Shown: in pieces, positions 11,625 to 14,136 of the stretch | How the letters are laid out: every line of letters starts with the position of its first letter | How positions within the stretch are numbered: the first letter of the stretch is position 1 | Source: an uncultured delta proteobacterium | GTDB lineage: Bacteria > Myxococcota_A > Polyangia > Fen-1088 | Length of the DNA: 64,000 nucleotides | Assembly: GCA_963796685.1 (NCBI GenBank) | Contig: CAWCMR010000011.1 | Span: forward strand, 64,001-128,000 | Direction of reading: 5' to 3' | Position numbers and translations under genes: made by a program | The notes under the pieces: generated by a model | The model's database searches: none | What the model was told of the DNA's origin: nothing | The model's input: the letters and a program-made list of their open reading frames with translations, nothing else

Positions 11625-11848
11625 GGGCTCCTTTCGCGAAGGACTTCTGCTCTTGGTATGCCCAGCCTTGCGGAGTATGCGGGCTCGAGGCCCTCTCATC
11701 TGTTCGGGCTGCTTGTGAAAGTCGACACGACGACCCTCGCTCACCCACGGTCTTTGTGACCTGAGGGGCATCGGTCTGTCGTGCCGTTGAATCTCGTCGT
11801 GCTCCTTCGCCTTTGGGGGCGAGCGTAGCCCAGCTTTGCTGGGCGAAG

Positions 11849-13923
11849 GTGCGTCCGGCATGGACGCAGAACAAGAGGTGAAGCCATGAAATAGCCAAGT
11901 CCTCTGGGGACCCTGACGGAGGGAACCTCCCACCTACGAGACAAGGGCGCCGGTCTGGAGCACCAGGCCAGACGGGCCGCAAGGCCCGTCTCCCGCGAGG
12001 AGGTGTCTGGTGGAAGTCTATGGTGCAGCGCCGAACCGAACGAAAGTGAAGCGCCGTAAGGCGTGGGTACCGCTGGGCAAGCTGGCCTTCGGCGGCAAAG
12101 CCCAATATTCGTCGGGCGGCCCGCGTAGTGGCGACGGAGTCGGTGCGAAGTTCTGCGTTCTTACCCGGAGAGACCTCTTGGCCTCCGCGGCGAGGAATCG
12201 CAAGCGGAATTCATCGAGAACGAAAGGACGAGATGAAGAAGGGACAAGAGGAGTCGGATGGTCGCGTAATACCGGAAGGCCGGCGAAAGCCGGTTCCAAC
12301 CGCCAGAAGGCGGGGAGGGAAGGCGACCACGGCCAGCAAAGAGGCAAGGCAGCTCGGACTGTTTCCCGAGACAGCCGACAACCCGAAAGGGACCACCGCC
12401 CAAGCGGATCCGGGCCAACCCGTGCCTGCGCGGAGCGAGGTGCCGAAGTCGGGGAACGAGGAAGAGAGGACCTTGCCGCCCATGACGATGGAGGAGGTAG
12501 CGAGCGAAGGAAACCTGAAAAGAGCGTTCGAGCAAGTGAAGGCCAACAAAGGCGCACCTGGACCGGACCGGCAAAGCGTGGGGGAAGTGGCGAAGGGGTT
12601 GGGGACGCTGATACCGGCGCTGTCGCGGTCGCTGCTCGACGGGACATACCGAGTCGGAGACATCCGGCGGGTATGGATACCGAAGAGCGGTGACGGGCGG
12701 CGGGGCCTTGGCATACCGAACGTGGTGGACCGCGTGGTTCAGCAGGCCGTGCACCAAGTGCTCGGTCCGCATTATGAGCCGACGTTTCACCCGTCGAGCC
12801 ACGGTTTCCGACCTGGGCGCAGCTGTCACACGGCCATCGCCGAGGCCAAGCAGTATCTGGAGGAAGGGTACGAATGGGTGGTCGACCTCGACCTGGAAAA
12901 GTTCTTTGACCGGGTCCACTGGCAACGGCTGGTGGCGCGGCTAGAACAGAGGGTTAAGGACCGGCGGCTCATCGAGCTCATCTGGCAGATGCTGAAAGCC
13001 AAGGTGGTGATGCCCGACGGAGTGGTGGTGGCGACGGAAGAAGGAGTGCCACAAGGTGGTCCGCTTTCGCCGTTACTGAGCAATATCGTGCTGGACGAGC
13101 TCGACCGCGAGCTTGCCCAACGCGGTCACCGCTTCGTGCGCTATGCGGACGACTGCAACATCTACGTCGGAAGCGAGCGCTCGGGTCAGCGTGTGATGGC
13201 CAGCGTGGTCAAGTTCATCGAAGGCCGGATGCGGTTGAAGGTGAACTTGGCCAAGAGCGCGGTGGCCCGACCGGAAGAGCGGCACTTTCTGGGATTCCGG
13301 CTGCGGCGCGAGCCGCTGACGGGGGAAGCGGAGGTGCTGCTGTCGGCGCGGAGCAAAAGCCGCATTGACGAGAAGGTCCGAGAGCTGACGCCGCGAAACC
13401 TTGGGCAGTCCCTCAAGGGCTGCATCAAACAGGTCAACGCGTATTTGCTCGGATGGATCGGCTTCTTCTGTATCTGCACGGCCGCGGAAGAGCGGACGCT
13501 GCAGGCACTCGACGCACACATCAGGCGGCGGCTGCGAGCGATAGTGCTACGGCACTGGAAACGCAGACGCTTCATCGCACGACACCTCATCAGCCTGGGG
13601 GTGAGACCGAAAACCGCGTGGCAAGGGGTCTACAAGGGGCATCGCTCCTGGTGGGCGCTGAGCCACACATCGGTAGTTGAACGAGGACTGCGCAACGCAT
13701 ATTTTGCCGAACGCGGGCTTGTCAGCCTGGCCGAGCGGTGGAAGGACCATCACGCCTTGGACTTCATGGACCCGGCCCTGGAGCCAGGATAGCTGCGGGC
13801 AGCAATGCCGGCGCTGGACTACGGGTCGCTCCCGAACGCCAGCGTCCCGAAGAGCCGGATGTGAGGCCCACAAGTCCGGTTCTGTGAGAGCTGGGGGAGG
13901 GTAACCTCCCCTGGCTACTCGAC
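11849..13923 (+). mobile_element. Group II intron 2 (class IIC-like)
   Basis: 5' GTGCGTCCGGCATGGACGCAG; short domain V gagccggatgtgaggcccacaagtccggttc; ends ...ctactcgAC; boundaries exact by comparison with the empty site at 37301/37302; EBS1 candidate CTTC (12087-12090) pairs with exon GAAG. Confidence 0.92.
12233..13792 (+). CDS. ltrA: Group II intron reverse transcriptase/maturase (class C type)
   Basis: NLKRAFEQVKANKGAPGPD, LGIPNVVDRVVQQA, GVPQGGPLSPLLSN, YADD; no En domain; start could be 12482. Confidence 0.93.
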   Translation: MKKGQEESDGRVIPEGRRKPVPTARRRGGKATTASKEARQLGLFPETADNPKGTTAQADPGQPVPARSEVPKSGNEEERTLPPMTMEEVASEGNLKRAFEQVKANKGAPGPDRQSVGEVAKGLGTLIPALSRSLLDGTYRVGDIRRVWIPKSGDGRRGLGIPNVVDRVVQQAVHQVLGPHYEPTFHPSSHGFRPGRSCHTAIAEAKQYLEEGYEWVVDLDLEKFFDRVHWQRLVARLEQRVKDRRLIELIWQMLKAKVVMPDGVVVATEEGVPQGGPLSPLLSNIVLDELDRELAQRGHRFVRYADDCNIYVGSERSGQRVMASVVKFIEGRMRLKVNLAKSAVARPEERHFLGFRLRREPLTGEAEVLLSARSKSRIDEKVRELTPRNLGQSLKGCIKQVNAYLLGWIGFFCICTAAEERTLQALDAHIRRRLRAIVLRHWKRRRFIARHLISLGVRPKTAWQGVYKGHRSWWALSHTSVVERGLRNAYFAERGLVSLAERWKDHHALDFMDPALEPG

Positions 13924-14136
13924 CGAGGGGGGACCGGGGGACTGCGAGCGAGAGCGAGCCAGTCCCCCGTAAGATACAAGGGGCCAGCGCACTCTCTCGC
14001 ATGGCCGAACCCCTCACCCGACGCGCTTCGCGCGTCGACCTCTCCCCGCTGCGCGGGGCGAGGTGAATCTTCCGAGTACCTCGCAAGCTCTCGATTCTGC
14101 ACAGCATTCAACCCGTTCGGTGCTCTAGGGTGTGAC

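Follow-up and report, generated by a model that had tools for sequence, protein, structure and literature searches.

Group IIC introns recognize a DNA stem-loop followed by a short intron-binding site 1 (IBS1) as their target (PMC4424553, PMC7306698), and the class C proteins that coincide with IIC ribozymes all lack an endonuclease domain (PMC7306698, PMC4424553). The IIC-attC introns occupy the bottom strand of attC, against the direction of cassette transcription, which they impede (PMC3001079). [quoted passage not shown] The bridge RNA of IS621 is composed of a 5' stem-loop, a target loop and a donor loop, in which the left target and left donor guides (LTG and LDG) pair with the bottom strand and the right target and right donor guides (RTG and RDG) with the top strand, the RDG being discontiguous (PMC11208160). 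Here we describe a locus from an uncultured delta proteobacterium (a stretch of 64,000 nucleotides, hereafter the window) where a group IIC intron interrupts, in antisense orientation, the predicted bridge-RNA leader of one of the two IS110 copies in this stretch. Our analysis makes it probable that this is an incidental nested insertion, oriented by the intron's own rules, and that the expression of the interrupted copy (copy 1) is impaired by it.

Each of the described systems resembles the locus in some respects and departs from it in others. Like the terminator-seeking class C (IIC) introns, for example B.h.I1 and GsI-IIC, the window intron encodes a protein closest to the IIC reverse transcriptases (RTs) and lacking an endonuclease domain, has a small ribozyme part, and is inserted a few nucleotides after a DNA stem-loop with a short IBS1. 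In contrast to these introns, its targets are REP-like palindromes and the IS110 left-end hairpin, none followed by a T-run, and its protein carries ~85 additional N-terminal residues. As with the IIC-attC intron S.ma.I2, a IIC intron lies in the structured recombination-site DNA of another mobile platform, on the opposite strand; however, the structure interrupted here is the bridge-RNA leader of an IS110 element, no target is an attC site, and no outward promoter was detected by consensus scans. The host element shares with IS621 the DEDD and Tnp domains, the CT core, a REP target, a predicted promoter split across the junction of right end and left end (RE-LE) and the layout of the RNA loops. 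On the other hand, its leader is ~100 nt longer than the 177-nt IS621 RNA, with two more hairpins before the target loop, and one of its copies is interrupted by an intron.

The intron and its host element

The limits of the insertion follow from the alignment of the two IS copies. Copy 2, the uninterrupted reference, reads ...GCTGGGCGAAG directly followed by CGAGGGGGG..., and copy 1 has 2075 additional bases exactly at this joint (Table 1). The inserted sequence begins with GTGCG and ends with CGAC, which fits the GUGYG...AY rule of group II introns, and it is matched on the plus strand by the Rfam families RF02001 (group-II-D1D4-3; 11989-12159, 79.7 bits against a gathering score of 32) and RF00029 (domains V-VI, gathering score 40). 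The ribozyme part is small, with 384 nt 5' and 131 nt 3' of the open reading frame (ORF). The latter contains the Pfam domains RVT_1 and GIIM only, with no endonuclease domain, and YADDCNIY is among the peptide patterns taken from its product. The best relative of this protein in PDB is the GsI-IIC RT (6ar1; 5e-109, 368.7 bits), followed by further near full-length matches to IIC RTs (7uim, 3.4e-86 and 293.4 bits; 5hhj and 5hhl, 236.8 and 234 bits, both ~1e-68), whereas enzymes of other classes score far lower (IIA LtrA, 9e-38 and 133.6 bits; IIB 6me0, 4.7e-22 and 81.8 bits). In the genome database its best relative (65% identity) comes from a metagenome-assembled genome (MAG) labelled Polyangium. 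The alignment with the 428-aa GsI-IIC RT extends up to residue 504 out of 519. By these similarities (rather than by phylogeny) the protein is assigned to class C and the intron to IIC. The N-terminal ~85 residues (window 12233-12490, plus strand) do not align to the solved IIC RTs.

The recombinase of the host element shows the Pfam domains DEDD_Tnp_IS110 (PF01548, 5.2e-23) and Transposase_20 (PF02371, 1.5e-16), and its gene is 100% identical in the two copies. All seven full copies of the element in the genome are flanked as GCCC-CT-IS-CT-CACCC, and a repeat scan detected no inverted repeat at the IS ends. The non-coding left end (279 nt, numbered from the first base after the core) contains a stem-loop at positions 10-43, a second hairpin at about 61-77, and two arms with candidate guides. 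In the target arm, an internal loop holds an LTG, GCCCCUCA (135-142), with the same sequence as the left target and the core, and an RTG, GGGUGAG (158-164), which complements the core and the right target. A small hairpin stands between them, and both matches include the core. In the donor arm, an LDG, ACAGAUG (201-207), is identical to the terminus of the right end, the match ending at the core, and is separated by a hairpin from a discontiguous RDG, AUAC...AAG (226-229, 235-237), complementary to the terminus of the left end.

Several observations speak for this assignment. A target-guide pair of 8+7 nt appeared in only 28 out of 20000 dinucleotide shuffles. Six aligned left ends from related genomes show compensatory changes at 8 of the 37 consensus pairs, and three of the seven pairs of the second hairpin are among those that vary in this manner. 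In a 68%-identical IS relative this hairpin retains three compensatory pairs. The LTG also tracks the flank, which is GCCC-CT here and AACC-CT in two diverged relatives (alignment read by eye). Joining of the right end, CT core and left end would yield TTGACT-17-TATCTT, a promoter candidate recognized only as a consensus match (9/12), with its -10 element at left-end positions 3-8. Overall, the left end is best described as encoding a recognisable bridge RNA with putative target and donor guides and a predicted junction promoter, and its domains, core and left-end RNA loops place the element in the IS110 subgroup. No Rfam bridge-RNA family matched the left end at E values up to 10, and no RE-LE circle junction was obtained from the contigs of four read runs, which break at repeat ends.

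The guide-loop region of both copies also gave a sub-threshold match to the Rfam family sX15 (RF02234; 29.4 bits, gathering score 55; 11645-11796 and 37098-37249) on the plus strand, opposite to the recombinase gene. For sX15, a Xanthomonas sRNA, a complementary partner (asX7) is described, along with 10 homologues on one chromosome of Stenotrophomonas (PMC3300014). In a Xanthomonas plasmid record its neighbours are a hypothetical gene on one side and a transposase gene of the IS3 family on the other, with no annotated IS110 gene adjoining. Nothing is drawn from this match here.

Table 1. Features of the interrupted IS110 copy, its intron and the uninterrupted reference copy (window coordinates)
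Feature	Position	Strand	Evidence
Core dinucleotide (CT in IS orientation), right-end junction	10651..10652	-	flanks of 7/7 full copies
IS110 right end, non-coding, with -35 TTGACT (10666-10671) of the predicted circle-junction promoter	10653..10673	-	
IS110-family recombinase gene, 316 aa from GTG	10674..11624	-	Pfam domains
Inner left end (predicted guide loops)	11625..11848	-	target/donor guide matches, shuffles, conserved stems with compensatory changes
DNA hairpin GCCCAGC-TTT-GCTGGGC followed by IBS1 GAAG; 5' exon of the intron	11828..11848	+	
Group IIC intron, 2075 bp (class by similarity)	11849..13923	+	copy 1/copy 2 alignment, BLAST, Rfam and PDB matches
Exon-binding site 1 (EBS1), CUUC	12087..12090	+	terminal loop in RF02001 model and covariation
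Intron-encoded reverse transcriptase/maturase, 519 aa from ATG	12233..13792	+	open frame, YADD motif
Intron domains V-VI	13850..13923	+	RF00029, 46.6 bits
Outer left end, 55 nt, with predicted -10 TATCTT (13971-13976) and first stem-loop	13924..13978	-	
Core dinucleotide, left-end junction	13979..13980	-	CT on both sides in 7/7 full copies
Uninterrupted IS copy 2, empty-site reference	36106..37357	-	

The intron is inserted after left-end position 55, ~40 nt 3' of the predicted transcription start. It parts the predicted junction promoter and the first stem-loop, on one side, from the second hairpin, both guide-bearing loops (target and donor) and the recombinase gene, on the other. The original prediction, made from the letters of the window, had described a group IIC intron on the plus strand, antisense to the IS transcript and 57 bp inside the left end of an IS with both ends intact, so that the guide loops and the recombinase would be displaced from the junction promoter by 2075 bp. 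Its assignment of class and strand agrees with the Rfam matches, the RVT_1/GIIM domains and the IIC RTs as top PDB matches, and the antisense orientation follows from the opposed strands of the intron (plus) and the recombinase gene (minus). The distance to the IS end is 55 nt, or indeed 57 nt when the CT core is counted, and the ends are intact in the sense of 100% identity to copy 2 (1196/1196 and 56/56 bases on the two sides of the intron). The displacement of the promoter likewise holds, for a promoter that is itself predicted from a consensus match.

Target hairpins and distribution of copies

The same prediction had the intron following the hairpin gcccagc-ttt-gctgggc and exon GAAG, with CTTC at 12087-12090 in the EBS1 position. 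The base-exact comparison of copies 1 and 2 confirms the former (stem 11828-11834/11838-11844, loop TTT, GAAG 11845-11848). As for the latter, CUUC lies within the 8-nt terminal loop GCCUUCGG of an RF02001 helix, and positions 3-6 of this loop complement the last 3-5 nt of the 5' exon in four introns, namely CUUCG with CGAAG in the window, CGGU with ACCG in a relative from genome G073, GUC with GAC in one from G037, and CUC with GAG in one from a Gemmatimonadales MAG. The set leaves aside locus L004 of G009, related only to approximately the first 200 nt of the intron and having a degenerate 5' end. On the strength of this covariation, the assignment of EBS1 to CUUC holds. Among the copies within the genome, the EBS1-IBS1 pairing amounts to 2-5 bp (counted by eye). 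The second hairpin of the leader is near-palindromic, so that it can be formed by both strands, while GAAG adjoins the stem on the plus strand only, the IS-sense strand having TACG at this place. The orientation of the intron is thus explained, since only the plus strand offers GAAG, pairing with the CUUC of EBS1, right after the stem.

The mapping of genomic intron copies with their 5' exons, which had been suggested as a check, revealed by BLAST 11 full-length copies (99.76-100% identity) and one 146-nt fragment in the genome that holds the window (G000). The presence of 11 copies at no less than 99.76% identity implies that the intron is, or recently was, mobile. Ten 5' exons are readable (the 11th copy starts at a contig end), and all ten have a perfect hairpin 0-10 nt before the intron. 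They represent six sequence contexts: the IS left end (two), adjacent units of a 79-nt tandem repeat (two), a REP type (two), the GCCGGGC-TTT-GCCCGGC type (two) and two singletons. The 36 nt upstream of the intron fold at -13.6 to -23.1 kcal/mol in these exons, compared with a mean of -8.86 (standard deviation 3.79) for 3000 random 36-mers of the genome, every observed value being in the lowest 11.5% of the random ones or lower. None of the ten hairpins is followed by the T-run of an intrinsic terminator; they are therefore not classical terminators but mostly REP-like palindromes. A hairpin also precedes the intron in three relatives from other genomes. At the start of the 3' exon, the place of IBS3, 8 of the 11 copies have a C, two an A and one a T.

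Some of these copies are of interest in their own right. At C8:379444-383672 two introns lie head-to-tail in adjacent 79-nt repeat units, 79 nt apart. Those at C25:626445-628519 and C13:680090-682165 reside in the REP type used by four other IS copies, ~27 nt from the IS core, so that the intron and the IS share REP families as landing pads. IS copy 2 is itself located within a tandem array of 172/180-nt REP-like units (window 34633-36176 and 37302-37803), each with the IS target GGGTGAG/GGGCC, and copy 1 is flanked by single units. Four of the 11 intron copies have a 1-nt insertion in the RT ORF at alignment column 975 (near window 12822), and one of them also at column 1133, which would mean either a shifted reading frame in these copies or assembly errors in homopolymers.

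Of the seven full IS copies in the genome, six are uninterrupted (1252/1252 identical) and one, copy 1, carries the intron. In addition, there are seven solo left-end fragments (44-144 nt), one of which has the intron at the same site. Two exact target sites are occupied and 10 are empty. This relic (C25:1543315-1545527) has different flanks, an inner left end 96.4% identical to the IS over 83 nt, and an intron of 99.9% identity. There are seven variable columns among the 11 introns. A at 12693 is common to the window copy and C11:2-2076 only, while the relic's intron reads G at this position and T at 12911, as do four other copies, and thus differs from the window intron at both positions that separate the intron sub-lineages. 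Given that the relic is diverged and that the window copy has a closer relative than the relic's intron, the simplest reading is that it represents a separate, independent insertion into the same hairpin.

Solo left-end relics were noted at C25:1109420-1109562, C8:212939-213082, C25:234099-234237, C25:1543315-1545527 and window 45216-45259, and at 11 places in genome G002. They stop at the DNA encoding the left target guide, and in the two cleanest ones GCCCCT is joined directly to CACCC..., the sequence that flanks a normal target on the right. Apparently, a deletion from the internal target-like sequence to the right-end junction removed the guide loops and the recombinase gene. Such relics may be a natural product of half-matched bridge recombination.

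The case had been expected to reduce to a one-off insertion if the other intron copies followed ordinary terminators and if only one composite existed. The outcome is mixed: the former is not what we see, the other exons being REP-like palindromes with no T-run, and the latter is, as copy 1 is the only full-length IS+intron composite in the genome. Composites at other sites, a search for which had been suggested, did not emerge beyond this genome either, with no junction-spanning match in 104 other genomes (G001-G104), all drawn from its own order and class. In two of these, G002 and G001, the IS occurs (99-100% identity) and solo left ends are numerous, but the first 200 nt of the intron gave no match. 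In a wider survey we considered, with their flanks, the best 80 of 590 loci encoding relatives of the intron protein, 55 of them with at least 2.5 kb of 5' flank. No IS110 gene in a window-like arrangement was found among these 80 by tblastn with one recombinase query, a search that distant IS110 members may escape. A single locus (L037, E 1.7e-6) has an IS110-like gene 3' of the intron with its C-terminal end facing it, which is a different arrangement.

Four out of 20 public read runs were compared as contigs: X1, which probably represents the source sample, X2, X3 and the RNA library X13. A joint of 11848 directly to 13924 (skipping 2075 nt, GT..AC) is present in contigs of X1, X3 and X13; with 10 intron-less copies of the site in the genome, it is uninformative on both splicing and the existence of an empty allele. 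In fact, the X1 record with this joint leaves the window sequence at 11765, and its flank fits exactly the solo relic C25:1109420-1109562. X13 also provided a 2076-nt contig that runs the length of the intron at ~95% identity (differing in 104 letters), a relative from an RNA library, and X2, from another study, the first 1315 nt of the intron with 12 other letters.

A different group II intron is present elsewhere in the window (4206-6216, plus strand; RF02005, 143.8 bits at 4282-4498; RF00029, 46.4 bits at 6141-6216). It contains a 461-aa ORF (4751-6136), has no hairpin in its 5' exon and appears to interrupt a reading frame on the plus strand; three more copies or part-copies exist in the genome.

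Origin and consequences of the insertion

The sequence of events that we favor would begin with a mobile class C (IIC) intron, recognizing a DNA hairpin and a 3-5-nt IBS1. It would have reverse-spliced into the plus strand at a hairpin which corresponds, as its DNA complement, to the conserved second stem-loop in the left end of the IS110, its orientation being set by IBS1, the GAAG next to the stem on this strand. A group II intron in antisense orientation cannot be removed from the IS transcript, given the chemistry of group II splicing. With the ribozyme opposite to the IS transcript and no splicing to be expected, the 2075 bp would split the leader, leaving the promoter and the first stem-loop at this distance from the guide loops and the recombinase gene. 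Copy 1 should consequently be impaired in cis for expression of its own bridge RNA and recombinase, a reasonable inference under which neither the circle-junction promoter nor read-through would any longer support their efficient expression. For IS621, both of these routes (the junction promoter, or read-through from upstream of the left end) have been described, and a terminator placed upstream of the left end abolished excision (PMC13626964). Overall, the locus would represent an incidental collision of two elements that both seek REP-like palindromes.

Several points weigh against this interpretation. A simple scan of the intron's minus strand detected no terminator, so that transcripts may read through its 2 kb. 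That the first stem-loop and the second hairpin may be needed for bridge-RNA function is an assumption, the transcription start is predicted solely from a consensus match, and the loss of function in cis at this locus is inferred. The case for independent insertions consists of two variable intron positions together with three mismatches and one gap in 83 nt. Furthermore, the genome is a metagenome-type assembly (26 contigs, 7.3 Mb, 88.6% complete, 6.48% contamination), and no listed contig of the four read runs bridges the IS-intron junction, although such contigs break at repeat and intron ends and are uninformative in this respect.

The last two points would also suit a trivial explanation, an assembly artefact joining an IS copy to an intron copy, as the assembly is a binned one with the contamination just given, both elements are multi-copy, and no listed contig bridges 11848/11849. 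This explanation seems very improbable to us: both junctions are base-clean and recur with different flanks in the relic at C25:1543315-1545527, the insertion obeys the hairpin/IBS1 rule of the intron, and the composite lies on a contig of 327 kb. Quite improbable as well is the possibility that an outward promoter inside the intron drives the guide loops and the recombinase, keeping the copy active or even boosting it. There is a precedent in S.ma.I2, which blocks the Pc promoter and expresses the next cassette from its own Pout (PMC3001079). Nevertheless, no sigma-70-type site was found on either strand between 10500 and 14200, and a relaxed scan returned one weak site (8/12, 19-nt spacer) at 12134 on the minus strand, with the caveat that the consensus may not fit a high-G+C host, so that the scans weigh little in either direction. 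Moreover, a transcript starting within the intron would not include the first stem-loop.

More consequential for the intron would be hitchhiking, whereby the 3.3-kb composite, although non-autonomous, is excised and re-inserted in trans by the six intact copies, the intron spreading in this way. Such trans-mobilisation is possible in principle: both ends and both cores of the composite are intact, the six uninterrupted copies are present and 100% identical, a 22-bp donor is enough for IS621 when the bridge RNA is provided in trans (PMC11208160), trans action between genomic copies is left possible by the authors of another IS621 study (PMC13626964), and natural IS110 loci with cargo of up to nearly 100 kb have been reported (preprint 10.64898/2026.08.14.744561). 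Yet nothing that we found supports it, and we consider it unlikely, as the intron is present in one of the seven full IS copies only, the 104 genomes lack a junction-spanning match, including G002 and G001, where the same IS (99-100%) occurs and the intron was not matched, and the sole other left end with an intron is a diverged relic whose intron is not a sister of that in the window. An elaboration of this scheme, which we would put forward as a speculation of low probability, is that the conserved second stem-loop is a favoured landing site, used repeatedly, which the intron reaches when copy-out excision of the IS takes away the top strand and bares the bottom strand of the donor locus, that gap repair primes its cDNA, and that the resulting composite then becomes cargo in trans. 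The hairpin and GAAG are indeed on the bottom strand, with the orientation as seen; single-strand excision leaves the donor locus single-stranded (preprint 10.64898/2026.08.31.748434), and introns without an endonuclease use replication primers (PMC4424553). On the other hand, the same insertion occurs in a relic that has no right end and could not be excised, IBS1 already accounts for the orientation, and neither G000 nor the 104 genomes contain a second full composite. Incidental nested insertion into a REP-like hairpin hence remains our preferred interpretation.

Relation to the literature and significance

An intron inside a bridge-RNA leader was not reported in the parts of the literature on group II introns with IS110 or bridge RNA that were available to us, and supplements of these papers could list such cargo. 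The word "intron" is absent from the main text of the preprint on IS110 cargo (10.64898/2026.08.14.744561), and the passages of another preprint (10.64898/2026.10.21.760802) that we consulted contain no report of an intron in the leader.

As it stands, the locus is an ordinary nested insertion, and its value is that of a lead rather than of a new mechanism. If copy-out landing followed by riding were true, it would mean that a retroelement boards an RNA-guided transposon via a transposition intermediate. The locus also offers a natural construct for asking whether a long bridge-RNA leader can do without its 5' part, whether a 3.3-kb non-autonomous copy can be moved in trans by a bridge recombinase, and whether IIC introns board IS110 intermediates. 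It further provides a natural example of a collision between two hairpin- and REP-seeking elements, in which a IIC intron targets a conserved hairpin of a bridge-RNA leader and splits this leader. The targets of the window IIC intron extend past terminators and attC to REP-like palindromes and the left ends of IS110 elements.

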